Notes under the pieces: model-generated
What the model was told of the DNA's origin: nothing
The model's input: only the letters and a program-made list of their open reading frames with translations
The model's database searches: none
Program-made: the position numbers and the translations under genes
IMG/VR virus record: IMGVR_UViG_3300044908_000045
Coordinates: 32,001 to 96,000 of that record
Reading direction: 5' to 3' (one strand)
Length of the DNA: 64,000 nt
From: a virus
Part shown: positions 8,601 to 49,255 of the stretch, in pieces
Layout of the letters: every line of letters starts with the position of its first letter
How positions within the stretch are numbered: the stretch's first letter is position 1

Positions 8601-9185
8601 CTCGCGACGGCTTTCGCTGCTGAGCGCGCGGGCGAAGCGCTGACTGGCATTCCCGGCGCGGCTATCGCTGTGCCGCTGACAATGCGCTGGCTGAAAGGCA
8701 AATCGAGCGCATTGCAGTTGCGCTCCAATCAGATGCTCGACCAGATGCTGCTCGATCCAAAATACGCCGTTGAGATGCGCAACGCTTACCCGGCAAAAGG
8801 CGAGGTGGTACGGCCTGCGGTGCTGAACCGTTTTGCCGCGCGTGTCGTGCAGAACGCGGTTCAGACGGCGCGTGGCACCGACCTGACAACGCCCCAGCAG
8901 AGAGCGGGCTACAAAGCGGGCGGCTCAGTCGCTGACGACCCAGTGCGGGGGATGTCAATCGAGATGCAAGGCAAGCACCTCGCCGATCTCGCAATGAAGA
9001 TTCGCCAGCAGCATTTCGCCGATGGCGGCGGGGTTGCCAGTGACGACGAGCCAGACGAAGACGACACAGAAGACGACCCGCGCGGTCTCCCAATCGCCGC
9101 TCAGGGCGCGCATCTTGCTGATATGGCCGAGAAATACCGCAAGGAAATGAGTGCGCGGGACGAGGCTGCGGTGCCAGCCGATTGA
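5643..9185 (+). CDS. large internal virion/ejection protein
   Basis: GTG overlaps upstream TGA; ~1180 aa, Ala/Gly-rich and helical; position after the DNA transfer protein. Confidence 0.65.
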   Translation: MSDPVLDDIGAALRQTPASTGSATASPDIPATPTPAASSDPMLGDIHAALSGKTTPSETSATSKPSDPGIVASGLAGVNTGLIADTLGAVTGIPTDLANAIIANPLNPKWHLFENPLPSEWWNKQMGKIGIGTEAAVPQTTAEKIAQSAGRGAGQMLATAIPGKAEISAAEAAGAEASPLGKLAGEGSVAGQAALGAAGGAGGEVGKENAPAGYEGAGEIIGNLAGGILPAGAAAGAVGLTRGARDVAGNVVPPLTAAGREAAAGNLASQALEHSAADPNAAFDALQDRVEADNAELIPGSKPTTAELANDPGLATLERTRARQNPEMATAVTEQRAENNEARVKALSGMSPETATPKAAQTALRQHLQNIDDLGAKNLEAARQGVENTFEPATTTLEQQENQAQSEATNAVNSLGGAEALGSAEERAAAPAAYGAAMRDPAQEAYVAERSRLNDLRQAVDPSGTMGMRPDAAKAAVGSIIDTFKPEGGVMYSGAERHLYDTVNGWGSLIPIDQAFQMRANINGRLAQAMDHSPQEAKRLLMLKQGVDQSITDTVGDTQVAEQAGAINKDAPPIEDRIAGLASTPGMGPSFIQDVARAYASNPTALRAARGDETGRGILAAADRQAEPVPAGTMVGGGGEGRDPNGGSSGGAGGEGVPQEPALTPLTDEARQRFAQWNQEYAEMKRQFQGETAGKLHAVGKMLQKGGAYDSFKLADSQVPWLFVDGKQTAREGIQRFLAATPPEAHQALDNAYSFSLRRAAQNPDTGALDLPKYNRWLTAHEAGLSERPELLNQFNTAAKAQQRLNDIRSNLADLQKSYADALKGAEKGATSDHLDARNAFTKSVAGQFIGDDPDKAIMRVFTGPDRAQKAQALMGLMAGNKPAIEGLQRAAIDHIIEKYSGSAMAGAESGALKPQMLQDFIAANRGVLDVLFPNGLAKNFDALSEDLKRSQLVPNAKLPGGSDTMQLQNAAKEHEVEPDKGNLLQLATAFAAERAGEALTGIPGAAIAVPLTMRWLKGKSSALQLRSNQMLDQMLLDPKYAVEMRNAYPAKGEVVRPAVLNRFAARVVQNAVQTARGTDLTTPQQRAGYKAGGSVADDPVRGMSIEMQGKHLADLAMKIRQQHFADGGGVASDDEPDEDDTEDDPRGLPIAAQGAHLADMAEKYRKEMSARDEAAVPAD

Positions 9186-9286
9186 TGCTATAGTCAACGC
9201 TCGCCCCACGCTTGGGCGGTGCGAGCAATGTCCCGATGTCGGCTTTGCTAACCTCAACCGCAATCGACCACCTTCGGAGGTGCCCG

Positions 9287-10501
9287 ATGGCTATCGTGTA
9301 CAAAGCGACTAACGTCCATAACAGTCATTTCTACATCGGCGCGAGCGCTAAGGTTCTGAAAACGCGCCGTTCGCAGCACATCCTCGCTGCACACGACCCG
9401 AAGCAGGCGACCTGCCGAATTTTCCACGCGGCGTTGCGCAAATACGGCGCGGACGCCTTCAAGTGGGTGGTCTTGGAGCGGACGGCCACGATTGAAGAAG
9501 CGCTTGAGCGCGAGGCGATTCTGATCGCTGAACTCAAGCCCGAATACAACATCTCGAAGGGTGGTCGCGGCGTTTCGGGCGTCCCATGGACGGAAGAACG
9601 TCGCGCCGCATGGTCGGCAAAAATGAAGGGAAACAAAAGAACGCCTGAGACTAAAGCGAGATGGCAGGCCAGTTATCAAGAGGGAGGCTGGGGCAAACCC
9701 GTCATGTGCCTGGAGGATGGATTTGCTTTCAAGAGCGCCGCCGATGTTGCGCGGCATTATTCGATAAATGCTGGAGGGGTATCGGGGGCGTGCTCGGGTA
9801 AGCATGTGTCCGTCAATGGGCTACATTTTGCTTTTATAACTGGTCCACTAAGCGCTGACGAGCGAGCAAAAATTATCCGCTCGCGAGAACAAGAAAGCCA
9901 CCAACGTCGCCAAACCGCCGCCTTTGCGCGACCTCCGCTATCCGAAGACGCAAAGGCCCGGATCGGGGCTGCCTCGAAAGGTCGCAAGGCTAGGTTGGGA
10001 ATGCCAACGCCGGAATCAGCGAAGCGAAGATTGTCGGAGATCGGCAAGACCGATGAGGCACTAGCGCGGTTCGCCAAATATCGCGCATTAGGACCAGCCG
10101 CATCGGCACGGTCAGTCATTTGCCTTGACGATGGCAAAACGTATCAAAGCGCTAGTGCTGCCGCACGCGCCTACAACATACACAACAGTCTTGTTGTCGA
10201 GGTTTGCAATCGCGATCCACGTCGGGTCACTGCGGCTGGGCGCATCTTCCGATATATTGACGATAATCCCTCAGCTGAGGCCGATCTGGCTGCCGCACAG
10301 GAACGACTAGCTAACCAGCATAGTACCGCCCGCGCTAAGTTCTCGAAGGCTGTTATATGCGTGTCAGACGGGAGACTGTTCGCCTCCACCCAGGTGGCTG
10401 GCGCGGCATACGGCATACATCCATCCTTTATTGCTGGGGTCTGCCGGGGCGAGAGAAACTCCGCGCATGGGCTGTTATTCAGATACGAGGAGGAGGAATA
10501 G
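9287..10501 (+). CDS. GIY-YIG homing endonuclease with NUMOD/IENR-like DNA-binding repeats
   Basis: IVYKATN...FYIGAS, conserved R/E and YNISKGG; three repeats of V(M/I)C(L/V)xDG..F/Y.S; GGAGG RBS before ATG 9287. Confidence 0.9.
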   Translation: MAIVYKATNVHNSHFYIGASAKVLKTRRSQHILAAHDPKQATCRIFHAALRKYGADAFKWVVLERTATIEEALEREAILIAELKPEYNISKGGRGVSGVPWTEERRAAWSAKMKGNKRTPETKARWQASYQEGGWGKPVMCLEDGFAFKSAADVARHYSINAGGVSGACSGKHVSVNGLHFAFITGPLSADERAKIIRSREQESHQRRQTAAFARPPLSEDAKARIGAASKGRKARLGMPTPESAKRRLSEIGKTDEALARFAKYRALGPAASARSVICLDDGKTYQSASAAARAYNIHNSLVVEVCNRDPRRVTAAGRIFRYIDDNPSAEADLAAAQERLANQHSTARAKFSKAVICVSDGRLFASTQVAGAAYGIHPSFIAGVCRGERNSAHGLLFRYEEEE

Positions 10502-10993
10502 GTGAGTTGGCGCTACACGGGAAGGGCGAGAACTGATGCAAATTACCCGGAAGCATATGGCATATGCGACCGTTGCGGGTGTCTTTTTAATCTCGTAGAC
10601 TTACACTACCAGTATGATTATCGCGGCCCGCAACTTGTAAATCTACGTTTACGTGTGTGCCAACGGTGTTATGACAAACCATTCGTCTTTTTTCGACCTT
10701 TGGTTTATCCGGCCGATCCCGTCCCAGTTGCGGACCCTAGACTCGAAGATTTCACCGCCGCCAACCAGGGCACCTACCCGTTGCCGCCGTTGCCGTGGCC
10801 GACGGTGCCGATTGGGCCGCAGCCGACGCTGACTCTCAGCAGCGATACGGGAATGGGGTTGACGGGGGACACTGGGACGCCGTTGACGCCGGACAATCCG
10901 TATGCGCTGCCGCCGTCTGACCCAGCGAATAGCGGGATTGGGGGCAATCCGCCGCCGCCATTGGATGTGGGGGCGCTGTTTTCTGAGCCGTGA
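10502..10993 (+). CDS. conserved phage late protein with CxxC...CxxC zinc motif
   Basis: AYGICDRCG...LRVCQRCYD...DPVPV, a pattern typical of podovirus structural modules. Confidence 0.6.
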   Translation: MSWRYTGRARTDANYPEAYGICDRCGCLFNLVDLHYQYDYRGPQLVNLRLRVCQRCYDKPFVFFRPLVYPADPVPVADPRLEDFTAANQGTYPLPPLPWPTVPIGPQPTLTLSSDTGMGLTGDTGTPLTPDNPYALPPSDPANSGIGGNPPPPLDVGALFSEP

Positions 10994-11103: not shown

Positions 11104-13353
11104 ATGACCCGAGTAAAGCGCTGGTTTCTGATCGCCGCAGCGACCGTTGCGTCTGGTTTGTACGCTGGTGCGGCGTATGCGCAGAGCGAGACCTGGTCTA
11201 ATTTTGTTACCAACGCGCCAACCCTACAGTTGCCGTGTCTGAGTTCCGATTTTGTCCCAGTTGTTCGTGGCAACACGACATTTCACATCGCGGCAACCAA
11301 CGCCTGTAGTGGTGGGGGTGGGGGCAGCGGCACGGTCACCAGCATCGGCACGACGGCGCCGCTATCGGGCGGGACAATTACGACGGCGGGCACGCTCTCG
11401 CTGACTGGACCTTCGGATCTGACGACGTTTACGGCTAACGCGATCCCGATCGGCGCTGGCGCTTCGCCATTCGGCGCGATTGGCCCCACGGCAAGCAGTC
11501 TGGCTGGGTGGAACGCGAGCGGCGTGGGCTCGGTTATCGCGCTCGGCACGAACTTGTCGATGTCGGGATCGACGCTGAATGCGACAGGCGGCGGTTCCGT
11601 CAGCGTTACGGCGGGCGACACCAGCATCGTCGTGTCGCCGTCTCCGCTTACGGGAACCGGCACGATCGAAGTCGGCGGCCCCTCGCATCTGACGACGTTC
11701 ACGGCTGGCGCGTTGCCTCTCGGCAACGGTACGTCGCCATTCTCCGCGCTGGCTGCCGTCAACGGCGATTGTGTGATCGCTAGCGCGGGGGCGTGGACTG
11801 CCGGCAGTTGCACAGGTGCGGGTACGGCTTTCAGCGCTCTTGGCGGCGGGACTAACACCACTGCCGCGATGCTTGTGGGCTCTGGCGCATCGCTAGGTGC
11901 CACGGGATCAGGAACGCTCACGGCGACGGCGGCTCCGTTGAGCGGGATTACTGGGTTCGGGGCTGGCGTTGCCACGGCGCTCGGAATAGCGCCAGGAACT
12001 ACAGGATCATTTGCGACACAGGATGGCTCAATCACGACTGGGCACTGCTTAGAGTGGGGGCCTGGTGTTGAGGACGCCGGGTCCGCGTGCGGGGGCGGGG
12101 GATCGAGCGCCTTCAGTGCCCTCACCGGGAGCACAAACACGACAGCGGCGATGGTCGTCGGCTCCGGGGCCTCACTTACCTTCGCCGGCTCCGGCACCAT
12201 CAATGCGTCCGCAGCGCCACTGAGCGGTTTGACGGGCCTTGGCACTGGCGTCGCGACGGCCCTCGCGATAGCGCCTGGGACCACGGGCTCATTCCCGACG
12301 CAAGACGGGGCGATCACGACGGGGAATTGTCTGAAGTGGGGGCCGGGCGTCCAGGATAATGGCTCCGCTTGCGGGGGCACGCCGGTTTCCTTCACCGGCA
12401 CGACGACCGGCTCGGCGAACACCTATCTGCTGACGACCGTGCCCAGCAGCGGCTTCGTGCTGTCGAACCAGCCGGTGATCGAAGTCGCCTTCAACGCGGC
12501 GAACACTGGGGCGAGCACGATTAATGTGGATTCTGGCGGCGCGGTCGCGATCGACGTTCAGACGCCATTGGGCCTTTCGGCCTTGGTGGGCGGCGAGATT
12601 GCGGCCGGCAACACGATGCGGACGCTGCAATACAACTCGGCTGCCTCGGTCTGGGTGCTCAAGAACCAGCTCGGCTCGCCCGTCAGCAACCCCTGCACGT
12701 CGCAGCCCATCACCGCAGCGCAGTGGGCGGCCGGCTTTACCTGCACGATCACGGCGGCAAGCCAGACGCTCACCTTCCCGGCCGTGACGACCCTCTCTCC
12801 GCAGGGCGGCGTCTTCATCAATTCGGTCGGGCAGTATTTCACTGTGACCCCCGCCGCCGCCGACGGCATCAACGCTGGGTCGGTCAACACATCGGTCGTC
12901 TTTGGCCCCGGCTCCTACACGGTCACAAGCTCCGGCACATCGGGTGGAACGGCCAGCACGGGGCTTCAAGTCGCGGGCGGTGCGCGGGCGATCCCCGTCG
13001 CGATCTCGTGGCTGCCGGGGCAGAACCTCGCCGCCGCAGCGCTGCCGATCGCGAACCTCAAGAATACGAACGGCTGGATGATCTCTCAGATCACGTGCAC
13101 CCCCGAGGTTGTTGCGGGTGGAACGGCAACGATCGACCTCTGGGAAGCGCCTTCGGGGACCGCGCTCGGCTCGGGGACGAAGCTCACAACGACCCCGTGC
13201 AACGCCAACACCGGGGCCGGGACTGATCAGGCGCTGCTGTCGTCTCCCGTCGCGGTTCCGGCCGGCGATCGGATCGGCATCATCGCAACCGGCGCGGGCT
13301 TCACGAGTAGTCCGCTCGGGGCCGGGGTTCTGACGGCGACGTTGCAGCAATGA
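11104..13353 (+). CDS. tail-fibre-like protein with N-terminal signal peptide
   Basis: GTVTSI...LSGGTITTAGTLSL and GSANTY...NTGASTINV fibre motifs; ~94-aa internal duplication; Sec-like N-terminus ending AAYA/Q. Confidence 0.7.
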   Translation: MTRVKRWFLIAAATVASGLYAGAAYAQSETWSNFVTNAPTLQLPCLSSDFVPVVRGNTTFHIAATNACSGGGGGSGTVTSIGTTAPLSGGTITTAGTLSLTGPSDLTTFTANAIPIGAGASPFGAIGPTASSLAGWNASGVGSVIALGTNLSMSGSTLNATGGGSVSVTAGDTSIVVSPSPLTGTGTIEVGGPSHLTTFTAGALPLGNGTSPFSALAAVNGDCVIASAGAWTAGSCTGAGTAFSALGGGTNTTAAMLVGSGASLGATGSGTLTATAAPLSGITGFGAGVATALGIAPGTTGSFATQDGSITTGHCLEWGPGVEDAGSACGGGGSSAFSALTGSTNTTAAMVVGSGASLTFAGSGTINASAAPLSGLTGLGTGVATALAIAPGTTGSFPTQDGAITTGNCLKWGPGVQDNGSACGGTPVSFTGTTTGSANTYLLTTVPSSGFVLSNQPVIEVAFNAANTGASTINVDSGGAVAIDVQTPLGLSALVGGEIAAGNTMRTLQYNSAASVWVLKNQLGSPVSNPCTSQPITAAQWAAGFTCTITAASQTLTFPAVTTLSPQGGVFINSVGQYFTVTPAAADGINAGSVNTSVVFGPGSYTVTSSGTSGGTASTGLQVAGGARAIPVAISWLPGQNLAAAALPIANLKNTNGWMISQITCTPEVVAGGTATIDLWEAPSGTALGSGTKLTTTPCNANTGAGTDQALLSSPVAVPAGDRIGIIATGAGFTSSPLGAGVLTATLQQ
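11824..12377 (+). repeat. two diverged ~94-codon tandem repeat units inside the fibre gene
   Basis: AFSAL..TNTTAAM.VGSGASL...GVATAL.IAPGTTGSF.TQDG.ITTG.CL.WGPGV.D.GSACGG occurs twice. Confidence 0.85.
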
Positions 13354-14066
13354 TCCGCCGCCTCAGCCTGACCGCCGCAGCGCTGCTGTGGGCGCTCGTC
13401 GCGCATGCCAACCTCGCGATGGCGCCGACATCGAGTGGTGGCGGCAGCAACCCCGCCGTCGCCCAAGACACCAATGTTCCATTTCAATCGTTTGGCTGCA
13501 CGTCCGGTTGCAGTTTTACGATTCCAGCGACGGTGGCGGGATATGCTCTCGTAATCCCGCTCGGCAATCTACAGAACTCCTCTCTACAGACCTACACGAT
13601 CAATGACGGCGGTGATACTTGTGCCGTTGCCCAAAATAGTGGAAATGCCGGTGTAGCTCCCTCATACATTACGTGGATAGTTTGCCCAAATGTAGCATCG
13701 GGTCGCACATCGGTAACAATCACATCCAACAATACCCAGTCATTTGCCGGAGAGATTTATCAAGCAGAAAACGTGGCCACTTCCGGGACCATCTACGAAG
13801 GTGGAAATGGCGCTGGGAATGCCGGATCAAATGTAGTCGCCTTCTCTCTTTCCGCGACCACATCGTTTTCTAATGACCTCATCTTTCTGGCAGGCTGGGG
13901 CAACTCAGGATCGAGTTCGCTGACGGCGACCGGCGGCACTTGGACTACGGGTGTCAGTGGTCTCGCTCTGACGCAGCAGGGGACTGGCACAGGTACGTAT
14001 GGTGGAAATCTGACGGTTGTCGGCGGCACGCAATCCGCGTATGCGGAACTGGCGCTAAAGCCATGA
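13350..14066 (+). CDS. exported beta-rich fibre-associated protein
   Basis: MIRRLSLTAAALLWALVAHA signal peptide; S/T/G-rich; ATGA coupling at both ends. Confidence 0.6.
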   Translation: MIRRLSLTAAALLWALVAHANLAMAPTSSGGGSNPAVAQDTNVPFQSFGCTSGCSFTIPATVAGYALVIPLGNLQNSSLQTYTINDGGDTCAVAQNSGNAGVAPSYITWIVCPNVASGRTSVTITSNNTQSFAGEIYQAENVATSGTIYEGGNGAGNAGSNVVAFSLSATTSFSNDLIFLAGWGNSGSSSLTATGGTWTTGVSGLALTQQGTGTGTYGGNLTVVGGTQSAYAELALKP

Positions 14067-15166
14067 GGCGTCTTGCCTTCCTCGCGCTGCTCTTGGCGCT
14101 GTGCGCCTTCAGCCCACATAGGTTCGCGGGGTTTGTAGGGGGGGCGTCCCCCACCTATCAGGGGGTGTGCGATGTCATCGTCGGCGGGTGCGCCGTCGCC
14201 TACGATGTCGATCGGTCGCCGACCAGTGCTTACAGTGGCCCCCTGTTCCAGTTATGGAACGGCTCATCGACACTGAATGTCGGGCAGACCGCAAATCATA
14301 CCGTCGATCTTTCAACCTACGCGGCGTTCTGCGGCGGCAGCATGACCTCGACGACCCACTACGGCACTGCGGTCCTAGTGTCAACGACGTGCTATTACGC
14401 GGCATTTTACGACGCCATCCAAGGCTCGCCCAACACGCTGGTCCCGATCACGATCAATACTCAGTACGGCCCGAACTGCACTGGTGGCGGTCCCTACCTC
14501 TGCGCCGCGCCGTTCGAGATCGAGGTCGCCACCGGGTTGCCGATCGTCGATACCCGAGTGGCCAATACGAACGGTTTTTACGGCGATTACTACATCTCCG
14601 GGGATGCCAATTCGACCGGAGTGACCGGTGGTTCTTCCCCGTCGAGTGTGCTGATAAACGAACAGGATCAGCCGATCGCCGTCTGCTGCGGACACTTTGA
14701 ACTCGCACACCTGAACAGCCTCCCCGACAACCCCAACGACGGTTACGATCTGGGGCCGGGTGTCTGGTATGGAAACGGGCTCATCTCCGGCAACCAATGC
14801 GGATCGAGCACGACCTACTGCCTGCGGATGGAGGGCGGCGGCAATCCGACGCTGCCGCTAGGCGATTACGCTACCTCTCAGGGTAACAGGGTCACCATTG
14901 GTGCATGGGATACGGTTACTGGCGGCATGCCTATCCATAGCTATGTCAACGGAACCTTTCTTGCTGATTTCAGCGATCACGTTAACACCGATCTGGCGAT
15001 CCATCTCGGTGGCGGCGGCGATCTAAGCCAGCCAGCGCCATGCTTCTGCCGAGAGATGATTATCACCAACGGGACGATGAGCCAGGCTGATGCGACGGAT
15101 GCGCAGAACAACATCCAGGCTTTCTTTTCGACGCTGACCTTCCCTTCTCCGTGTGGATCATGTTGA
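14063..15166 (+). CDS. exported alpha-L-arabinofuranosidase B (GH54) catalytic-domain-like protein
   Basis: CDV...CAVAY...SAYSGPLFQL, FC...TTC...YD, vicinal CC, LGGGGDLS and AQNNI match the AbfB catalytic-domain pattern; signal peptide. Confidence 0.7.
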   Translation: MRRLAFLALLLALCAFSPHRFAGFVGGASPTYQGVCDVIVGGCAVAYDVDRSPTSAYSGPLFQLWNGSSTLNVGQTANHTVDLSTYAAFCGGSMTSTTHYGTAVLVSTTCYYAAFYDAIQGSPNTLVPITINTQYGPNCTGGGPYLCAAPFEIEVATGLPIVDTRVANTNGFYGDYYISGDANSTGVTGGSSPSSVLINEQDQPIAVCCGHFELAHLNSLPDNPNDGYDLGPGVWYGNGLISGNQCGSSTTYCLRMEGGGNPTLPLGDYATSQGNRVTIGAWDTVTGGMPIHSYVNGTFLADFSDHVNTDLAIHLGGGGDLSQPAPCFCREMIITNGTMSQADATDAQNNIQAFFSTLTFPSPCGSC

Positions 15167-15831
15167 AAATACTCGCATTCATAGCGATGATGCTGCCCGC
15201 AGCGGCGATGGCGCAGACCATTACTGCTCCGGCCGGAACCGTCACGACATCGGACGGGGCTTCGTGGAGCTGGGGCGGGACCGCACCGCAGGCCGGGCAG
15301 TACTACGTCCTGCGCAACGGCGTGTCCGCCGACGGTGGTGAGGCTGCGGTCATGGAAGTCTCCGGCGGCGCGCTGTACGCCGAGAACACCTCGGTCTCTC
15401 CGGGCGTGTGGTTCCTGTGGAACGGCTCCGGCTGGACCCAAGAGGCAAGCGCCCCTTCGCCATCGACCGGGGGCGGCACTACCACGACCGGCGGGTCCTC
15501 TGGCGGGAGCACCACGCCAACGTCGTCGAGCGGCAGTGGTCCTACGCTGTTGACGGGGAGCCAGACCCTCTCGACACTCGGCCCTTCGTATGAGGCTCAG
15601 ACTGGGACGGGCATCGTGCGAATCACGTTGCCCGCTTGCCCCCAAGCCAGCAGTTTTTGGGACGCTATCGGGGATGGTGATCTGCGGCTGACCCTCTCGT
15701 CGGGAAACTGGGCCAACCTGCCGGCGAGCAACCAGGAAGTATCCCTATCGGTCTACGGAAACGCGACGGCTACCACGTACTGCGGGTCTGATGGCAACTG
15801 GCGCATCTCCTTCGGCGGCGCGCCCCCTTGA
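15160..15831 (+). CDS. exported protein, two small beta domains joined by a S/T/G linker
   Basis: MLKILAFIAMMLPAAAMA/Q signal peptide. Confidence 0.6.
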   Translation: MLKILAFIAMMLPAAAMAQTITAPAGTVTTSDGASWSWGGTAPQAGQYYVLRNGVSADGGEAAVMEVSGGALYAENTSVSPGVWFLWNGSGWTQEASAPSPSTGGGTTTTGGSSGGSTTPTSSSGSGPTLLTGSQTLSTLGPSYEAQTGTGIVRITLPACPQASSFWDAIGDGDLRLTLSSGNWANLPASNQEVSLSVYGNATATTYCGSDGNWRISFGGAPP

Positions 15832-15966
15832 GCGTCCGGCTTACACCGCTGAATATATTGTGCCTAGCCGTATGGTTCTGGTGGCCGTGGTCGCTATTCG
15901 TCGATTGCGCGAATTACGCGCTGAAGATTCTGATCTCGATGTCATTGTGGCCGACGATATCGTAAC

Positions 15967-18900
15967 ATGAGCGAAGTCCGCAAAGCCGTTCTCCGGTTTA
16001 CCCGGCGCTCGATCGCGCAGGCGCTTCTCGCGGCGCTCGGGCTCGGGGTGCTGCCGCAGGCGGTTGAGGCGTTCCGGCCGCATCTTTTCGGCGGCGGCGC
16101 GGCTGGCTCTGGGCCGCCACCACAGACGATCTTCTCTATCACCCTCTTGCCCACCACGTATACGGCCGGCGTAGCGAACGGCGTCGTCGGCACCGTGACG
16201 GTGCTGATGAGCAACGGCAACTCGCCGGGGCCGAGCGGCACCCTGTCGATCACCGGGACAAACAGCGGCGGATTCCATCTGTCGGGTACGTCGTCGGGTG
16301 CGTCCCTGCTGCAAAATTCGGGTGGTACCACCGGAGTCGGGCCGTACAGCGATTTCAACATCGTCTACACCCAAGCGGGCATCTCTAACTCGCCGCAGCA
16401 GATCACGCCGACGGTCGCTCAGGGCGCGACGTTCCCGATGAACATCACGCTCGTCAATTCTGGCGGATCGACGCAATCGGCGGGCGCGGTGATGCAGCCT
16501 TTTGGGTTGCCGTTCCGCGACGGCGACATGACGCCGAGCCAGGTCCCGGTCTTCACCGTTAGCGGGGTATCGCAGCCGTTCTCCTACGGTCTCCGATCGT
16601 ACTACCCATCCGGCAATCTGCGCTTCGTCTCGATTATGCTGCTCCAGACGGGGTTCAGCCTCGGTGCGGGCGCGTCGATCGCCTGTACGGTGTCGGCGGC
16701 GACCGGATCGTGGCCGGCCGCGTCAGGCCGTAGCCTGACCGATGTCTACAACCAGCAGCTTGTCGTCAACGCGCCGCCGTTGGCTCTGACCGATCCTGGC
16801 GGCATGGCGAACGGAGCCCTTCCTGGCGGCGGGGTCCAAGTTTCGGCATGGTTGCGGAGCGACGCTAACAACTACAAGCAAGTCCAGTGGATGGACGGGG
16901 CGGCCGGTGCGGCATGGCGCGTCAGCACTAACATGGCCCACACTATCGGCGGCACGGCCGATACCTTCCTCAAGTTCGATCACTACATCTTTGCGCTCAA
17001 CAACTCGTCTGGTAGTTTGGCTGGGTTCCGGTGGATGGGCCGGATGCGGATGCCGAACTATGCCGTCACTACGAGCGGCAACAATAATTTCTTCTGCGCC
17101 CCCCCGAACTCAGGGTCGCCGACTTCGGGCTTGAACTGGCAGATCAACCCCGGTGGTGCTGGCGTCCAGACGTTCCTGCCGCCGTGGCCGTTTGCCGCCG
17201 TCACCGACATGACCGCCGAGGTTACGTTCACCGGCACGGCCACACTCTCGAACGGCTCCGGTGGTTCAGGCAATATCCTCGATGTAACCTCGGTCATCAG
17301 CGGCTCGATCAGCAATGGCACGCAACAGGGTGTCACCGGCGCTAACGTGGCTTTGGAAGAGGGCTCATTTTTTGAGCCTTATGGCACTTCCGGGACAACA
17401 GGGACGGGAGGCGTCGGCACCTATGCCATCGGCAACACGCCTGGCGGTCTGATCACGAGCCCGATTGACATTTTTACTCCTGGGACGCTGAACACAACGA
17501 CCGGGGCAACAGTCTGGTCGACCAGCCCCGGCAATAATTTCGTCCCGGTGCAATTTTCCGGGTCGGTCCCAGCTCCCTGGTCCGCTGGATACGTGTATTG
17601 GGGCTTGATAAATGCAAACGCCCCGCCCGCCAACTTCCAGGCCCTCAACACGACGTTTACCGCCCCCAACTCCGTACAAGTCCCGCAGGCCCCTGCGACA
17701 TTCACCGCGACTCCGGTCGTGGGGTTCTGCCCGTTCACGTCGATAATGTTCGCCAACTCGGAAGCAAAGTATAACTATTTCCAGGGATCGGGATCTCAAT
17801 CCGCCGATACGACGCTGCGGATGCAGATCAATCAAACATATTGGCAGTCGGCTAAGCTGATACCGCCTTACGATACCACGCTGTCTAGTGCAGAGATAAC
17901 TGATACTACCTACAATTACAGTTGGAATTGCTATAATGCTGGGCCTATATCGGCCGGGATAAGCGGCGGCGGAGACAGCGAATGGATCGGCGTGTTGACG
18001 AATTACGCCGTCGTCGATTTCTACAATCAGTCAGCAGCTAGCGATACTCAGAACCGTTACGTCGGCCTCGCCGCCGCGATGATGTGCTTCGACATCAAGA
18101 ACCCGACACTCGATACCGTCGTCAACGTCTCGAATACTTCCTATACAGGATTGCCGTCGCCAACTACGGCGCTTTGTTCGGGAGGCAACGGCGGGACGCC
18201 TACAGGATACACGCAGCCTGGACCGGGAACCGCCGGCGCCTTATTCTTTCAGGCGGCCGATGCATCGCATGTGCCGTTCTTCTCTTTTTGGCCATACATC
18301 CGCACCGGAGAACTACAATACTACGATTTGCTCGTCGAGCAAGGAATGGGGGCCGAGCTATTATATCTTGGCGCGGGTGCTCGCAATCCGAGTTCCGCGA
18401 ACGGCGACAGCCCGTACAGCGGCACGACCTATGGCGTTGTGACTTACGCCATTCAAGAGGCGCGGGGCACCGGCTGGGGGTTCCGCAATCTCGCTACTGC
18501 GGCGCTTATCGGGCCGTGGAACCCGACGGACCCAACGTACCTCTGGGACGGGACGCAGCAAGTTAAGTACCTCAACGATCTCGCTGACGTGAGTGCGTCG
18601 TTTACGATCGACCAGTGGAATTACAATCCTTCCGGTGTCTTCACGCCCTATGCTGCTGGTGCCTCCATGTGGACGCAATATCAGTACAATGCTAACAGCG
18701 GGAGCCCCGGCTTCAACGCGAGCCCGCTATGGGAGAATTGCTACATTGGGCTCGCGCACTGCTATAGCGCGCTGCGCGGGACATCGACTGCCACGAAAAG
18801 CCTCGCCTTCATTAACCTGATGATCGCTCGCCTGAACTACATTAACACAACCTATGGTGGCTTCTGGCCCTGCTACGCCTATGTCGATCAGAAAACGATT

Positions 18901-19530
18901 GCGGTTCCCGGTGGCGGCAATGTCGGGACGGTGCTAATAACCGAAGACGCTCAGTATGTAACAACACCCATCGCGGCCTGGGACCCGGTAAATTTGACGT
19001 TCGCGCCGAACTCGGGTGGCACCACGAACGCCTTCGTCATGAATAACATAACAAATAACGGCTACACGCCGGCTAATGGCGATGTGATCATGCCGTCCGA
19101 TTACAATGGATCCGGCCCACCGCTCTATCCGTCGGAGCTAAGTATTACTACGCCGTATTATATTGTGGAGATTGATTTCGCGCCGGGCGGTGGGAATTAC
19201 GCGAGTTTCAACTTATCAGCTACGAAGGGCGGTTCGGCGATCGCCATCGCGAGCACGAGCAGCGGCGGCAATCTGCAATTCAATTACATGCCCGGCCCGA
19301 CGAACCAGCCCCCGGCTGATATATCCTTTGCCCCAAACTTCATGTTCCAGGTCCGTGCGCTTGTGGCATGGGGCAACGCACTGGGCGCTTCTGGCGCCGC
19401 GCCACAGCTTGCCGACGCGGCTTTCCGTTTGAATAACAACAATCAGGGTTTCGGCCCTGGCCTTTACTTCGCCGGGGCCGGTGACAACCCGATTGATGCG
19501 CGGTATTGCCTAGCGAGCACTTACGCATGA
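15967..19530 (+). CDS. large Tat-signal protein, possible glycan-binding/depolymerase tail-spike-like
   Basis: FTRRSIAQALLAALGLGVLPQAVEA twin-arginine leader; PFGLPFRDGD, YPSGNLRF and EARGTGWGFR motifs recall lyase/toroid-type proteins. Confidence 0.55.
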   Translation: MSEVRKAVLRFTRRSIAQALLAALGLGVLPQAVEAFRPHLFGGGAAGSGPPPQTIFSITLLPTTYTAGVANGVVGTVTVLMSNGNSPGPSGTLSITGTNSGGFHLSGTSSGASLLQNSGGTTGVGPYSDFNIVYTQAGISNSPQQITPTVAQGATFPMNITLVNSGGSTQSAGAVMQPFGLPFRDGDMTPSQVPVFTVSGVSQPFSYGLRSYYPSGNLRFVSIMLLQTGFSLGAGASIACTVSAATGSWPAASGRSLTDVYNQQLVVNAPPLALTDPGGMANGALPGGGVQVSAWLRSDANNYKQVQWMDGAAGAAWRVSTNMAHTIGGTADTFLKFDHYIFALNNSSGSLAGFRWMGRMRMPNYAVTTSGNNNFFCAPPNSGSPTSGLNWQINPGGAGVQTFLPPWPFAAVTDMTAEVTFTGTATLSNGSGGSGNILDVTSVISGSISNGTQQGVTGANVALEEGSFFEPYGTSGTTGTGGVGTYAIGNTPGGLITSPIDIFTPGTLNTTTGATVWSTSPGNNFVPVQFSGSVPAPWSAGYVYWGLINANAPPANFQALNTTFTAPNSVQVPQAPATFTATPVVGFCPFTSIMFANSEAKYNYFQGSGSQSADTTLRMQINQTYWQSAKLIPPYDTTLSSAEITDTTYNYSWNCYNAGPISAGISGGGDSEWIGVLTNYAVVDFYNQSAASDTQNRYVGLAAAMMCFDIKNPTLDTVVNVSNTSYTGLPSPTTALCSGGNGGTPTGYTQPGPGTAGALFFQAADASHVPFFSFWPYIRTGELQYYDLLVEQGMGAELLYLGAGARNPSSANGDSPYSGTTYGVVTYAIQEARGTGWGFRNLATAALIGPWNPTDPTYLWDGTQQVKYLNDLADVSASFTIDQWNYNPSGVFTPYAAGASMWTQYQYNANSGSPGFNASPLWENCYIGLAHCYSALRGTSTATKSLAFINLMIARLNYINTTYGGFWPCYAYVDQKTIAVPGGGNVGTVLITEDAQYVTTPIAAWDPVNLTFAPNSGGTTNAFVMNNITNNGYTPANGDVIMPSDYNGSGPPLYPSELSITTPYYIVEIDFAPGGGNYASFNLSATKGGSAIAIASTSSGGNLQFNYMPGPTNQPPADISFAPNFMFQVRALVAWGNALGASGAAPQLADAAFRLNNNNQGFGPGLYFAGAGDNPIDARYCLASTYA

Positions 19531-19540
19531 GGATCGTGTA

Positions 19541-19765
19541 ATGGTCATCCGCGAGCACGTCTTCAACAACACGCCGGCGAGCGACCGATGCACGGTGCCC
19601 GGCTGCGGGGTGCCGTATGTCGAGCGGGAGCAGCGGGCTTGCATGCCGAGGGAGGTGCAGCGCGCCGTATCGCTGTCGTATCACTGCATCGACAGCACCG
19701 AGGTCGGAGACCGGCGCCGTGAGATATTCGGCGCCCCGGCGCATTACGATAAAGAAGGGAAGTGA
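19541..19765 (+). CDS. hypothetical protein
   Basis: ORF with GAGGA RBS in operon. Confidence 0.5.
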   Translation: MVIREHVFNNTPASDRCTVPGCGVPYVEREQRACMPREVQRAVSLSYHCIDSTEVGDRRREIFGAPAHYDKEGK

Positions 19766-19792
19766 TTGGGCTCTATATCGTTGTCAGATAAG

Positions 19793-20458
19793 ATGATCTA
19801 TAAAGCAGCAGTCGTCGGGCTTCTCTTCGCTCTGGTGTCATGTTCGTCCGTTCCGGCACCGCCGACGCAGCCCAGCATGGCCAACATCCTCGCCGTACAG
19901 CAGGAACTCGCGGCCGAGCAGGTCGCCGGGCTGACGCCGCTGCAGGCGCTAGAATATGGTATGCTGGGCGAGCAGCGGGCCTGCGACGCGTGGCTGGAGG
20001 CGTCGGCGTCGCGGGCGAACAAGATCGCGAACGCGCAGAACGCGCTCTCGAACGCGACCGGAGCGACCGCCGGGATCATGGGTATTCTCGGTGCTGGCGG
20101 CCCGGCGGTCGCGGGGGCTGCTATCGGTGGGACGTTCCTCGGAAACGTCCTGACGACGCAAGCCGGCGCCGGGCTGTCCGATGGCGATGCGTATCTGATC
20201 GCGAATGCCCTACAGCAGTACGAGGCGAACCTATCTATGCCGACCGACTTGGCTGCGGCGAGCCTTCAGATCGAGGGCGCGTGGATGACGTGCAATCAGT
20301 TCGCGGCGAATCAGTATGGTGAGCGCGCCAAGCTGACGGCGCAGGTGACAGCCAGCTCGCCAGTCTCGTCTAGTTCGTCGCTATCGCAAGCTCTGCAGCG
20401 CAATGCGGGGCTATACGTGCTGCCGCCGGTCCCGGTAGTGCAGATTAACGGACACTGA
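19793..20458 (+). CDS. lipoprotein
   Basis: MIYKAAVVGLLFALVS/C lipobox; glycine-zipper-like hydrophobic segment. Confidence 0.6.
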   Translation: MIYKAAVVGLLFALVSCSSVPAPPTQPSMANILAVQQELAAEQVAGLTPLQALEYGMLGEQRACDAWLEASASRANKIANAQNALSNATGATAGIMGILGAGGPAVAGAAIGGTFLGNVLTTQAGAGLSDGDAYLIANALQQYEANLSMPTDLAAASLQIEGAWMTCNQFAANQYGERAKLTAQVTASSPVSSSSSLSQALQRNAGLYVLPPVPVVQINGH

Positions 20459-20470
20459 GGAAGAATCGCG

Positions 20471-20869
20471 ATGATCTCCGAGACTCTCGCCGCTCTGGTG
20501 GATAAGGTACATTGCAAACCAGGTTGGTTTTTCAGGATCGTCGAAGAGGACGGCGCGGGACGATTGGTAATAACGGTCGAGGGCTACGACAGCAGCCAAC
20601 CGTCCAAAAGAATGCCGTTCACAGTCCGACATTTCTTTCCGATACCCCAAGCCACGTACAACGAGAAGACGTGGCGGCGGTGGATATTCGAGCAGTGCCG
20701 ACGGTTGGAGAACCACGAATTGGGAGAATGGTTCAGGGTCGGCGCGGAACGGCCCTTTGCCCCATTGCATGGAAAAGGCGAGGACCCTTATACTGTGCAC
20801 GAATTCCGTGACGGAATAGATGCTCGTATTACCCAAGACGGATCGATTCGGGAACCTTATCTAGAATGA
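20471..20869 (+). CDS. conserved phage hypothetical protein (HNH insertion target)
   Basis: GAGG RBS; ENHELGEWF...FAPLHG..EDPY motif. Confidence 0.65.
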   Translation: MISETLAALVDKVHCKPGWFFRIVEEDGAGRLVITVEGYDSSQPSKRMPFTVRHFFPIPQATYNEKTWRRWIFEQCRRLENHELGEWFRVGAERPFAPLHGKGEDPYTVHEFRDGIDARITQDGSIREPYLE

Positions 20870-21312
20870 CTCCGGCCGAACGTTCGCGGCGCTGGCGTCT
20901 AATACCTGGGAACCTGGAACGCGAAACGGCAGCGAAAGAAGCTAGGCGCCTCGCGGACCCTGAGAAATGGCGTGAGGAAAAACGCGCGTCTGGCACTAGA
21001 TGGCGCGAGGCGCATCGCGACGAAACAAACGCCAAGGCTGTCGCCCAGCGGATCGAACTAAGGGCACTCGCTATTGCCGCCTATGGGGGCCGGTGTAGCT
21101 GCCCTGGTTGTCACGTCCACCACGCTGAGCTTCTGACCATCGACCACATCAACGGCGGCGCGCAGCATCGACAGAACCGTCGATCAACACGAGATGTTTA
21201 CCGATGGCTTCAGAAGAACAACTACCCGCCCGATTTTCAATTGCTCTGCGGATCATGCAATCTGGCGAAATCCAACCGAACTTCATGCCCCCTCGCAGGA
21301 CAGGATCATTGA
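20866..21312 (+). CDS. HNH homing endonuclease
   Basis: AYGGRCSCPGC...LTIDHINGG...YRWL...FQLLCGSCNLAK. Confidence 0.85.
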   Translation: MTPAERSRRWRLIPGNLERETAAKEARRLADPEKWREEKRASGTRWREAHRDETNAKAVAQRIELRALAIAAYGGRCSCPGCHVHHAELLTIDHINGGAQHRQNRRSTRDVYRWLQKNNYPPDFQLLCGSCNLAKSNRTSCPLAGQDH

Positions 21313-44342: not shown

Positions 44343-44844
44343 AATCCGCCGTTTCAGCGTCTCTGGCGAGAAGGCTCCCGATGGCTTGCAATCTGCGTCA
44401 GAACTCATCAACGCGGTGCGCCACCCGTTGCCAATCGAGGACATCATTGCAGCGCTGACAAATGTGCGGGTACTAACAATATCGCGGGCTTCGACCAGCG
44501 AAGACCTTGATCTCACTTTGGCGGCTTTTGCGGATGCGCTTAGTGAATTTCCTGCGGACATCGTGCGAAAAGCCCTCCGCGACTGGCCCCAAAGCCACAA
44601 GTATTGGCCGACTCTCGCCGAGATCAGAGCGTCAATGGAGCCATTGTTGCGAGAGAGAGGCATGATTAGCGATGCCATCGAGCGAGCGCAGAACGGTAAT
44701 TTTGCTGATCGCGAAAACGGTGCTTGGCCGAGTTGGCTGGAAAAGATTTGGGGCAAGTTGCCAAATGGCCTGCAACAGCGCCTCGATGCGATCGAAGGTC
44801 AACAGAGATCCCCCGAAACCCCGGCAACTGAGGAATCCGTATGA
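44005..44844 (+). CDS. putative helicase loader/inhibitor-like replication protein
   Basis: AFADALSEFPADIV..AL..W......WPTLAEI; follows initiator; start uncertain (alternative ATG 44335). Confidence 0.6.
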   Translation: MTDESHDDKFQTIGSLTSKIADSLKNKVLTSGALLPSGTNSLTGTARKPMSLPTTTPLGERGLAVAPNSLRQMVATSRNPAEVDRSLRASLHPLVELSSECEWLTEDPHQMGEIRRFSVSGEKAPDGLQSASELINAVRHPLPIEDIIAALTNVRVLTISRASTSEDLDLTLAAFADALSEFPADIVRKALRDWPQSHKYWPTLAEIRASMEPLLRERGMISDAIERAQNGNFADRENGAWPSWLEKIWGKLPNGLQQRLDAIEGQQRSPETPATEESV

Positions 44845-45275
44845 ATCGTATCACTATTCTGACCGCCGCCGCCGCAGCTTTTGCCGCCGCCTTGGCCATT
44901 GGTCGGGTTGACGCCCAAGCACCCCCGCCGCCTCCATCGGCACCGCAGACCTCGGTGGACATGCAGATCCAAGTGTTGCAGCAGCGGATCGCGCAGGACA
45001 CCCAGACCCGCGACACGCTGCAAAAAAACCTCGATGCGATTCGCTCCGGGGCATTGTCGACCGCGAATGTCACCAAGCAGCTCGATGCGGTCGGGGCATT
45101 GCTGGCGAACGACCAAGCTGAGTTGCGTAGGCTACAGGCGCCGCCCCAAGCGCCCGCAAGCTATCTGAGTGACAACGGGCGTCCCCTGTCGGTGGATGCG
45201 CCCCCACATGGCCCACAGAGCTTCCCTGCGCCTCCTGTGCGGCGCGTCCCTGGCTCACCTTTGCCGCAGCGGTGA
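44841..45275 (+). CDS. exported coiled-coil protein
   Basis: signal peptide ending VDA/Q; GAGG RBS. Confidence 0.6.
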   Translation: MNRITILTAAAAAFAAALAIGRVDAQAPPPPPSAPQTSVDMQIQVLQQRIAQDTQTRDTLQKNLDAIRSGALSTANVTKQLDAVGALLANDQAELRRLQAPPQAPASYLSDNGRPLSVDAPPHGPQSFPAPPVRRVPGSPLPQR

Positions 45276-48898: not shown

Positions 48899-49255
48899 TT
48901 AGCGGTAGTGCGCAGTATCGGTGCCGTCAGGATCGGTTGTGATTCGAATGTAGGAGGTCTGGCAGAGATCGAAGCCGTCGGTAAAAGCGTCCACTACCCC
49001 GTCATTGAATTCGAGCCGAAGCTGCTGGTGGCATGGGAATCCGGGGTGATTGAAGGTAACATGCGTAGTCTCGCCGGGATCAATCACCTCTCCTTGGACG
49101 GGGTACCAGCGGTTATCAGACGGCGTGGAAACCGCCACCCCGACAATTGTGTGACCGGTTTCGTTGACCAAATCGAAATCGCCAGTGGTGCCCGCATGAG
49201 CAGAGACCGCATAAAGCAGAATTGCGGCGGCGAGTGGTAGATAGCGAGTAGTCAT
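48899..49255 (-). CDS. exported beta-sandwich protein
   Basis: signal peptide SAHA; DF.LVN.TG.TI..V.VS...W...C...L...F.DG...DLC family pattern. Confidence 0.7.
   Translation of the reverse strand: MTTRYLPLAAAILLYAVSAHAGTTGDFDLVNETGHTIVGVAVSTPSDNRWYPVQGEVIDPGETTHVTFNHPGFPCHQQLRLEFNDGVVDAFTDGFDLCQTSYIRITTDPDGTDTAHYR

Follow-up and report, generated by a model that had tools for sequence, protein, structure and literature searches.

A fibre-like and glycan-enzyme-like gene block with predicted export leaders in a podovirus-type phage

Textbook assembly of tailed phages is entirely cytoplasmic. Why, then, would a phage place export leaders on a set of proteins encoded among its tail genes? The question is raised by a block of six genes at positions 11104 to 20458 of a 64,000-nucleotide stretch (the window) of virus record IMGVR_UViG_3300044908_000045, from a phage of podovirus type. 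The genes are named here by their start positions in the window (11104, 13350, 14063, 15160, 15967 and 19793), and the coordinates are collected in Table 1. A sequence-only reading had described the block as a tail-fibre/receptor module in the tail position, with all six open reading frames (ORFs) starting with export leaders of the Sec, twin-arginine (Tat) or lipoprotein type. All six ORFs were present at these starts on the plus strand, a leader of one of the three types was recognised on each of them (five by rule, one by eye), and the block lies directly after two giant ejection-type proteins (phrog_4287), in a genome with a podovirus-type tail module. Judging from these sequences, it is very likely that the six products leave the cytoplasm, and the host-surface proteins among them probably mature outside this compartment, in which the particles are built.

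The leaders were called with home-made rules, not with SignalP: a charged n-region, a hydrophobic h-region and small residues at −3/−1, or a lipobox. For the Sec type, a positive n-region, a hydrophobic h-region of about 7 to 15 or more residues and small residues at both −3 and −1 were required. As a control, 2 of 366 internal-Met starts of related proteins passed the test. Five of the six ORFs were flagged by the rules; the sixth, 13350, had been dropped by the ORF picker because of its overlap with a long TTG form of 14063, and its leader was judged by eye. The Sec pattern was found in 11104, 13350 and 15160 and, weakly, in 14063 (15 residues, LCA/F), whereas 19793 carries L-V-S-C at residues 14-17, in accordance with the lipobox pattern [LVI][ASTVI][GAS]C. 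For its part, 15967 has in its leader T-R-R-S-I-A, followed by an uncharged stretch and VEA/F, the consensus being S/T-R-R-x-F-L-K. Two of the script calls were made from other starts than those adopted here. With 15160 the script was run from an upstream GTG at 15151 and cut at APA/G; the AMA/Q cut from the ATG at 15160 is a reading by eye, favoured because the mature start is conserved in the orthologue from a 120-kb relative (L005). With 19793 it was run from an upstream TTG at 19766 and flagged the lipobox, the 16-residue leader from the ATG at 19793 being again a reading by eye.

Over the whole 122-kb genome, the test flagged 21 of 179 ORFs of at least 70 amino acids (aa). With 13350 counted as positive, leaders were found on 6 of the 7 ORFs of the block versus 15 of the 172 elsewhere (Fisher p = 8e-6), in an ORF set that is crude and includes spurious ORFs. 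The block genes are co-oriented and lie within the late structural region, four of them chained by overlapping stop/start codons, and their GC content at third codon positions is that of the other large late genes. Promoters and terminators showed no excess in the block (5 found versus 5.6 expected, and 16 versus 10.9, standard deviation 3.7). Both 11104 and 15967 begin at the first start codon after a stop, and most block starts have no obvious Shine-Dalgarno sequence by eye. No family reached threshold in Pfam, PHROGs or NCBIfam for any of the six proteins. As to position, podovirus fibre genes usually follow the ejection proteins, as in T7-type phages.

Table 1. Coordinates of the block and of other features of the genome (window positions, unless marked as genome positions)
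Feature	Position	Strand	Description
Window	bases 32001-96000 of the record		part of a single 122,238-base virus record
SU10-type adaptor	upstream of window		PF24175, E 1.5e-7
Virion protein	upstream of window		phrog_3287, E 4.4e-30
Small leaderless tail-fibre-type proteins	upstream of window, including genome 24574
Five leader-bearing ORFs	L001:6264-9140, 14706-15062, 15032-15853, 15897-16670, 16671-17216 (genome 18264-29216)		upstream of window; starts at genome 18264, 26706, 27032, 27897 and 28671; interleaved with adaptor, nozzle-like and fibre genes
Two giant proteins	open the window		the first of ejection type and including a lytic transglycosylase part (phrog_4287, E 6.9e-21)
GIY-YIG homing endonuclease	9212-10501		PF01541, E 6.6e-8; phrog_314, E 7.8e-31; between ejection proteins and block
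10502, 163 aa, leaderless	10502..10993	+	four Cys in a CxxC..CxxC pattern, Pro-rich tail; directly upstream of block
11104, 749 aa, fibre-like	11104..13353	+	Sec-type leader, residues 1-26 (nt 11104-11181, ..AYA/Q); distinct C-terminal domain
13350, 238 aa	13350..14066	+	Sec-type leader, residues 1-20 (nt 13350-13409, ..AHA/N); four Cys in mature chain
14063, 367 aa, GH54-like	14063..15166	+	short leader, residues 1-15 (nt 14063-14107, ..LCA/F); start overlaps 13350 stop
15160, 223 aa	15160..15831	+	Sec-type leader, residues 1-18 (nt 15160-15213, ..AMA/Q); Gly/Ser/Thr-rich linker; two Cys
15967, 1187 aa, PL26/PcRGLX-like	15967..19530	+	Tat-type leader, residues 1-35 (nt 15967-16071, TRRSI .. 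VEA/F)
Domains of 15967	residues ~57-150, ~150-635 and ~636-1187 (nt 17872-19527)		immunoglobulin (Ig)-like (by eye), beta, (alpha/alpha)6 toroid
19541, 74 aa, Cys-rich, leaderless	19541..19765	+	between enzyme and lipoprotein; first 37 residues 76% identical in L005
19793, 221 aa, lipoprotein	19793..20458	+	leader, residues 1-16 (nt 19793-19840); lipobox LVS/C; Pro-rich mature start
Rv2525c-like glycoside hydrolase	3 kb downstream of block		PF08924, E 7.3e-15
Small ORF, classical Sec-type leader	44841-45275	+	outside structural region
532-aa ORF	45739-47337	-	canonical Tat-type start (RLSRRALFKGAG), no Cys
Small ORF, classical Sec-type leader	48899-49255	-	outside structural region
Small ORF, classical Sec-type leader	genome 96414-97082		outside structural region

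When homologues from related phages were compared, the close orthologues were found either to retain the leaders or to replace them. The leader of 11104 is nearly unchanged in its close orthologues, and leaders are kept in the close orthologues P0016-18, P0001-12, L005 and L010. In the first search with 15967, 12 of the 15 homologues were close relatives and 9 of these had a leader start of the RF-T-RR type; TRRNFL or TRRNIL is present in the orthologues P0002, P0003 and P0004, and TRRNFL also in that of L005. In this last phage, 15160 and 19793 have orthologues whose leaders bear no sequence relation to those of the block, yet these leaders end at the same mature residue, which coincides exactly with the predicted cleavage site of 15160 and with the lipobox Cys of 19793. 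Unrelated leaders in front of the same mature start are the pattern expected of a cleaved signal. Homologues starting downstream of the leaders, which the sequence-only reading had named as a point against itself, were seen only in distant relatives of the 15967 enzyme that form a leaderless clade (L006-L009 and most of 24 viral loci), not among close orthologues.

Leaders are also common in the wider families. The test was passed by 62 of the 74 homologues of 11104 and by 66 of the 106 homologues of 14063, many of the latter as lipoproteins. Among 146 further representatives of the 15967 family, drawn from 1016 clusters at E ≤ 0.001, Tat-like starts were found in 59, versus 5 of 1460 internal windows, and the strict Tat motif in 17, versus none of the 1460. 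In general, these comparisons indicate that the leaders are under selection as leaders.

The cysteine content of the mature chains appears to give independent support for export. The ten non-lipoprotein leader-bearing chains of the genome contain 10, 4, 4, 4, 2, 12, 4, 14, 2 and 10 Cys, all even numbers; the 19793 lipoprotein has the Cys predicted to be lipid-modified plus two more, and the two ejection proteins have none. Beyond residue 30, 61 of the 74 fibre homologues have an even count, and their Cys pairs tend to be gained or lost jointly, as read by eye from column strings. That the large proteins of the block bear real export leaders is thus a claim that gains strength, as far as sequence can give it, from leader conservation, replacement at a fixed mature start, frequency in the families and even, paired Cys.

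The fibre repeats and paired Cys already noticed in 11104 were borne out. Repeats of about 94 aa occupy residues 237-331 and 332-426 (72/94 identical), residues 70-160 and 160-250 are identical at 37 of 81 positions, and the 12 Cys lie in six close pairs. Multimer prediction of the mature chain, which had been put forward as a check, was run on three copies of residues 27-340 and yielded an intertwined homotrimer with an ipSAE of 0.82, versus 0.00 for the best of three controls. The contacts extend along residues 38-329, the runs share at least 96% of them, and the predicted local distance difference test (pLDDT) value of the partners is at least 86. When the tool was calibrated, 20 of 30 solved pairs and 1 of 23 single chains attained the mark; the 11104 run departs from that calibration by its own alignment and its three copies, and its values express the confidence of the model. 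The architecture predicted for 11104 is that of an intertwined trimeric fibre. Residues 432-542 match tail fibre genes of PB1-like Pseudomonas phages weakly (E 6e-4); searches of GenBank phages gave weak partial matches only, PHROGs searches with the leader-bearing fibre homologues returned C-terminal tail-protein domains only, and sequence searches of the PDB with A1, A2 and 11104 gave nothing meaningful. A 43-kb contig (L015) contains a 1356-aa leader-bearing fibre-like gene among large co-oriented ORFs, whose roles were read by eye. The next gene, 13350, overlaps the stop of 11104 (ATGA); its orthologues are 92% identical in L010 and 32% identical, with a different leader, in L005, and it has no Pfam or PHROG family.

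The mature chain of 14063 contains 14 Cys, including a vicinal pair at residues 208-209. Its own match to PF09206, the catalytic domain of GH54 alpha-L-arabinofuranosidase B, stays below the cut-off (E 1.1e-3, 18.6 versus 25 bits), although 81 of its 106 homologues, which are 35-42% identical to it along some 90% of the length, carry this domain; we therefore call it GH54-like and not a member of the family. In the Atlas the clusters closest to it are viral ones with PF09206 (score 0.97), and no protein match was found among GenBank phages. A resemblance to the catalytic domain of GH54 is what these sequence matches point to.

The largest product, 15967, was modelled with AlphaFold2. A model of the full 1187 aa from 13 sequences was too poor (pLDDT 43.8) and was replaced by one of residues 150-1187 from a deeper alignment of 82 relatives, with a pLDDT of 88.8 and a predicted template modelling score of 0.91. 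In a Foldseek search with this model, the top 11 hits were chains of PL26 exo-rhamnogalacturonan lyases (E 4.9e-5 to 8.8e-4, TM 0.23-0.34). By VIA, it aligned with PcRGLX 5xqo_B over 510 residues across the model (Z 11.4, root mean square deviation 4.7), and its toroid aligned with the GH105 hydrolase 4wu0_A over 293 residues (Z 14.1, deviation 4.5). Helical toroids commonly give Z values as high as these, which thus speak for the fold and not for the function. The model accordingly gives 15967 a predicted PL26/PcRGLX-like overall fold, with beta domains and an (alpha/alpha)6 toroid. PcRGLX_1st (PF19501, the N-terminal RIFT barrel) does not match 15967 itself, but it was found in 3 of the 13 A1 members and in 5 of 9 diverse relatives, with scores over the 22.1-bit cut-off in three of the five. 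His768 and Arg833 (numbering of the full protein) are invariant in A1 and A3, and further Tyr, Trp, Arg and Asp residues are invariant in A1. No protein match was found among GenBank phages, and the BFVD fold search named nothing. The Tat leader of this copy is rated as probable and not as settled, because the signal profiles are silent and TRRSIA lies off the consensus; a weak TAT_signal match was obtained with the relative P0116 (E 0.0016).

The neighbouring gene 15160 appears, from its sequence, to be a split-off module of this enzyme. Between its residues 20-124 and residues 41-145 (36-140 in L008) of leaderless proteins of 1120-1125 aa in L006-L009 the identity is 45-47%; the remainder of these proteins corresponds to the body of 15967. 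The leaderless fusion closes the late block of podophage contigs of about 48 kb, after internal virion proteins and some small ORFs. An Atlas search with 15160 gave no usable match. In the same clade a short ORF, Ig-like by eye, ends just before the leaderless fused gene in another frame (e.g., L007:9090-9620). The domain order is shuffled between clades, the Ig-like stretch lying inside 15967 here and in a separate ORF in L006-L009, where joining by a frameshift is not excluded.

Among 24 further viral loci of the 15967 enzyme, four have convincing leaders; besides these, L005 and L010 are leader-bearing and L006-L009 leaderless. This count omits L025, a 5-kb fragment, and script flags on L020, L023, L038 and L039 were rejected by eye. 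PHROGs searches with leaderless relatives that have other N-terminal domains gave nothing. The neighbours of the enzyme in L017 had been read by eye as adaptor and nozzle; pairwise BLAST against the adaptor and nozzle-like proteins of this genome found nothing, and we therefore make no claim about gene context from L017, L030 or L033. Two adjacent relatives of the enzyme are encoded at L012:6630-13420, on a 1.2-Mb contig of an uncultured alphaproteobacterial metagenome-assembled genome (MAG): one has a Sec-type leader and the other a canonical Tat leader, the latter gene being apparently split into ORFs of 372 and 729 aa.

Although 14063 and 15967 are unrelated, their mature N termini (window 14108-14131 and 16072-16095) both read F-x-P-H-x-F-x-G, with a Gly-rich linker behind. 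In L010 a GH54-like paralogue (8787-10004) has a leader like that of 15967, but lacking the RR. These sequences suggest an exchange of leader-plus-tag cassettes from gene to gene. As a family-wide tag, a loose hydrophobic-x-GG motif following the leader was tried and dropped, because its enrichment was only about twofold in the PcRGLX-like family (51/158 versus 238/1580) and absent in the GH54-like family (14/106 versus 185/1060); the F-x-P-H-x-F match of 14063 and 15967 stands.

The lipoprotein 19793 has in L005 an orthologue that is 89% identical over the mature part, with a different leader but with the lipobox Cys and the mature start kept. Weak matches of unknown function were its only matches in PHROGs, and it had none in Pfam. 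A Gly/Ala-rich hydrophobic segment at residues ~100-132 (window 20090-20190) is reminiscent, as we take it, of the glycine-zipper segments of outer-membrane lipoproteins. It is uncertain whether the small ORF 19541, just upstream, belongs to the module. The interpretation given in the sequence-only reading is partly supported: of the six products only 11104 is fibre-like, 14063 and 15967 being enzyme-like and 15160 looking like a piece of the latter enzyme.

The leaders are not confined to the block. About 15 ORFs of the genome look exported: the six described, five upstream and about four elsewhere. Among the five upstream, 27032 and 27897 are paralogues (36% identity) and form the sole paralogue pair of the tail region. 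The 958-aa leader-bearing protein (genome 18264) matches with its residues 38-163 residues 20-135 of a leaderless protein of Rhizobium phage RHph_I4 (33% identity, E 1e-15), which belongs to the fibre region and is encoded right after host-specificity protein J. The shared fibre N-terminal domain thus lies directly after the leader in the one and at the very start of the other. An idea that the leader-bearing proteins are decoys was discarded, as the tail region holds no pairs of leader-bearing and leaderless paralogues. Bradyrhizobium phage ppBdUSDA122-1, a cultured, spontaneously induced phage, encodes between a large tail protein and a tail fibre gene a 482-aa protein (L041:3896-5344, WAX24264.1) that is related to the 958-aa protein and whose N terminus passes the leader test. 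The paper describing this phage makes no mention of proteomics or signal peptides; the phage may serve as a cultured experimental handle. Far from the tail genes, the 532-aa ORF, which has no Pfam or NCBIfam family, appears from its start to be a further exported protein.

Ahead of each of the two leader-bearing blocks stands a leaderless protein with an LTSDxG..LTGDxGxPLT segment, one of the two being a gp77-like protein. This protein (genome 25411-26751) contains the segment twice and matches PF23148, the GP4 gp77 fibre-tail adaptor, with an E value of 4e-5 and 24.5 bits, below the 27-bit cut-off. The other is 10502, which shares with it a 29-residue stretch (17/29 identical, pairwise E 6e-7) and has an 84% identical orthologue in L005. 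On this likeness, 10502 is a candidate for a particle-side adaptor.

As to the setting, the record is estimated by CheckV to be 93% complete, with linear ends. The Rv2525c-like glycoside hydrolase gene is probably the endolysin. An HNH-type endonuclease ORF at window 20866-21312 lies just past the block, and the mobile nucleases of GIY-YIG and HNH type that flank it could promote its exchange. The phage is an uncultured one; near-identical DNA was found in soil metagenome DNA runs only, with shares of 0.84 and 0.75 in two runs besides the possible source, no RNA run is listed as having the block, and no GenBank phage gave a DNA match to the block. The only relatives of the 1187-aa protein in the genome collection are two alphaproteobacterial MAGs, which makes an alphaproteobacterial host a reasonable guess and no more.

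How might such products be used? Four of them would be exported by the Sec machinery of the host and cleaved by signal peptidase I, the 120-kDa PL26-like enzyme would leave by Tat, already folded, and one product would become a lipoprotein, with the Sec substrates gaining disulfides in the periplasm. Together they would form the set with which the phage recognises and cuts a host surface glycan: 11104 as a trimeric fibre stapled by disulfides, 14063 as a GH54-like enzyme, 15160 and 15967 as the two parts of a PL26-like lyase or hydrolase, and in addition the small protein 13350 and the lipoprotein 19793. A possible substrate is an envelope polysaccharide, of the rhamnose/uronic-acid type or containing arabinofuranose, in an alphaproteobacterial host. 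The sequence-only reading had offered two fates for the exported parts, virion components folded in the periplasm or an exported adhesin and glycan-degrading system, which come out of the present analysis about equally likely.

In the first of these, the receptor-binding parts would be made in another compartment than the capsid and tail. Fibres and glycan-cutting enzymes might pre-assemble in the periplasm, and at least the fibre would meet the cytoplasm-built particle only once the holin/endolysin step opens the inner membrane. It would then dock through adaptor-like proteins that lack leaders and have their genes just upstream: 10502 and, from the first tail block, the gp77-like protein. 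We favour a virion role because of the position after the ejection proteins, the predicted trimer, the fibre N-terminal domain of the 958-aa protein and the shared adaptor segment; the leaderless fusion that closes the podophage late block, the leader-bearing fibre-like gene of L015 and the lack of a promoter or terminator excess point the same way. Even so, the full route from export through the periplasm to docking after lysis is close to a coin toss, tipped a little to the unfavourable side. It is with the same reserve that we suggest that export would be, in this two-compartment assembly, the way in which the phage obtains disulfide-stabilised parts for host recognition.

Several points weigh against two-compartment assembly. 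We know of no tailed phage that assembles its fibres in this way, and its prior is therefore low. Pfam, PHROGs and the GenBank phage search recognised no docking domain on mature 11104, the gp77 match does not reach its cut-off, and what the two adaptor-like proteins share is a short segment rich in Gly, Thr and Pro. The leader of 14063, with 15 aa, is unusually short, TRRSIA departs from SRRxFLK, and Pfam TAT_signal and NCBIfam found nothing on 15967. The leaders were called with a home-made test, and export, cleavage, expression and virion content are predictions from sequence. TatA, DSBA, Thioredoxin_4 and Peptidase_S26 genes were searched for in the phage genome and none was found, so that no export machinery comes from the phage itself. 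The part of receptor-binding protein might already be filled by fibre-type proteins of the genome that lack leaders (genome 24574 and 25411). Finally, both enzyme families consist mostly of ordinary exported proteins, mostly of unclear genomic context, which fits free enzymes equally well.

The alternative that best survives is that the products are exported but never enter the particle, forming instead an extracytoplasmic kit for binding and cutting glycans that would build up late in infection in the periplasm or at the outer membrane and be released at lysis. Stripping or trimming the capsule, exopolysaccharide or O-antigen of the dying cell and its neighbours, it would have a receptor-destroying or exit function, by which the progeny escape, avoid debris and find uncoated hosts. 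We regard this as a serious possibility that falls somewhat short of being probable. It draws on the same evidence for export, and GH54-like and PL26-like folds are typical of monomeric secreted enzymes and not of beta-helix tailspikes. Phage copies of the enzyme both with and without a leader would be easily tolerated by a free enzyme, relatives that bear Tat or Sec leaders are found on MAG contigs of bacteria (L012), and the leaderless fibre candidates of the genome could serve the particle. A precedent, in the available part of the source, is the Tat-signal depolymerase WceF of Pantoea, able to trim the exopolysaccharide of its own cell (PMC7949094). However, it is hard to see what a free kit would do with an exported trimeric fibre, or why about eleven exported proteins, taking up about 14 kb or 12% of the genome, should be mixed in with tail genes. 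In the 958-aa protein a fibre N-terminal domain is retained whose counterpart in a cultured phage has no leader, adaptor-like leaderless genes stand ahead of both blocks, and no leader-bearing/leaderless paralogue pairs suggest decoys.

That the N termini are not working signals at all, but hydrophobic helices or mis-called starts on ordinary cytoplasmic fibres and tailspikes, is improbable. The silence of the Pfam and NCBIfam signal models, leader calls by home-made rules, the 15-residue leader of 14063, the lack of obvious Shine-Dalgarno sequences at most block starts and the existence of leaderless 15967 relatives would agree with it. It is countered by the position of the 11104 and 15967 starts at the first start codon after a stop, by unrelated replacement leaders at a fixed mature start, by the canonical TRRNFL of orthologues and by the very strong enrichment over internal-Met and internal-window controls; even, paired Cys are also hard to explain in cytoplasmic proteins.

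Least likely of all is cargo of host origin that serves lysogenic conversion or superinfection exclusion, has no part in particle function or release, and would supply adhesins, receptor-masking proteins and surface-glycan remodelling to the benefit of the lysogen: the relative L010 carries an ORF that is integrase-like by eye, and the lipoprotein that ends the block recalls the exclusion lipoproteins encoded by T5 and lambdoid phages, but the block is co-oriented, partly translationally coupled and placed in the late structural region, its promoter/terminator signal is no higher than chance, and its third-position GC content is like that of other large late genes. Exported fibre-like trimers that act as cell-surface adhesins are nevertheless described for Bdellovibrio in the accessible part of PMC10769870.

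Returning to two-compartment assembly, parts that join virions from outside the cytoplasm would amount to a new assembly route and would explain disulfide-stabilised receptor-binding proteins in soil phages. If the proteins act free, they would be dedicated exported glycan-stripping kits, with a receptor-destroying or exit function uncatalogued for phages. Either way, the prediction of receptor-binding proteins from metagenomes would be affected, since leaders would wrongly exclude such proteins, and so would host prediction; expression of these proteins would be suited to the periplasm and not to the cytoplasm.

Among known systems, the fibres and tailspikes of podoviruses of the T7 gp17 type are leaderless and fold and attach in the cytoplasm. 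The block resembles them in its gene position after the ejection proteins, in a predicted trimeric, repeat-built fibre and in putative enzyme-bearing receptor-binding proteins, but its large proteins all carry a predicted export leader, and their cysteines are even in number. Lysis and exclusion proteins are the only late phage proteins that we know to be exported along host routes. Exported lysis proteins include the signal-peptide endolysin Lys44 of phage fOg44, signal-arrest-release endolysins and spanin lipoproteins, as far as the available part of PMC6116005 goes. As is predicted for the block products, they are late phage proteins that use the Sec or lipoprotein route of the host before lysis; in contrast, they act on peptidoglycan or the outer membrane, and the accessible text of PMC6116005 mentions leaders for endolysins, not for fibres or depolymerases.

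For the enzyme, the closest structural counterpart is PcRGLX, the PL26 enzyme of Penicillium chrysogenum (PDB 5xq3, 5xqo and 5xqg), with its N-terminal barrel, beta domains and (alpha/alpha)6 toroid (Foldseek probability about 1.0); yet the identity is about 10% and the TM 0.28-0.34, 15967 reaches no Pfam threshold, and the likeness is one of predicted fold. WceF of Pantoea stewartii is presented, in the part of PMC7949094 that is accessible, as a Tat-signal, tailspike-like exopolysaccharide depolymerase. With 15967, whose Tat leader is probable and whose glycan cleavage is predicted, it shares the phage-related glycan-cleaving type, the twin-arginine signal and an action thought to be on the cell's own polysaccharide outside the cytoplasm; it differs in being a chromosomal trimeric beta-helix from an exopolysaccharide synthesis cluster, whereas 15967 is a phage-encoded PL26-like toroid from a late virion-type block.

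For the fibre, the counterpart is the mosaic adhesive trimer (MAT) fibres of Bdellovibrio bacteriovorus, which are trimeric, phage-tail-fibre-like and provided with a signal peptide; after this peptide they share a beta-rich domain, conserved and ~130 aa long, and many have an S74 chaperone domain (PMC10769870, in its available part). As is predicted for 11104, they are signal-peptide trimeric fibres that work outside the cytoplasm, but their genes are bacterial and 11104 belongs to the structural region of a phage. We found no account of a tailed phage whose fibres or depolymerases bear export signals; the literature covered was mostly open access, with subscription journals largely outside its scope, and included the available parts of PMC3556154, PMC7949094, PMC9144972, PMC6116005, PMC10769870, PMC8878798 and PMC10127595. 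Compared with these systems, the sequences present a whole fibre/depolymerase block, and large families behind it, with what appear to be conserved Sec/Tat leaders and disulfide-type Cys patterns. To that extent the block extends the known kinds of exported proteins; the bolder two-compartment assembly would, if true, be categorically new.

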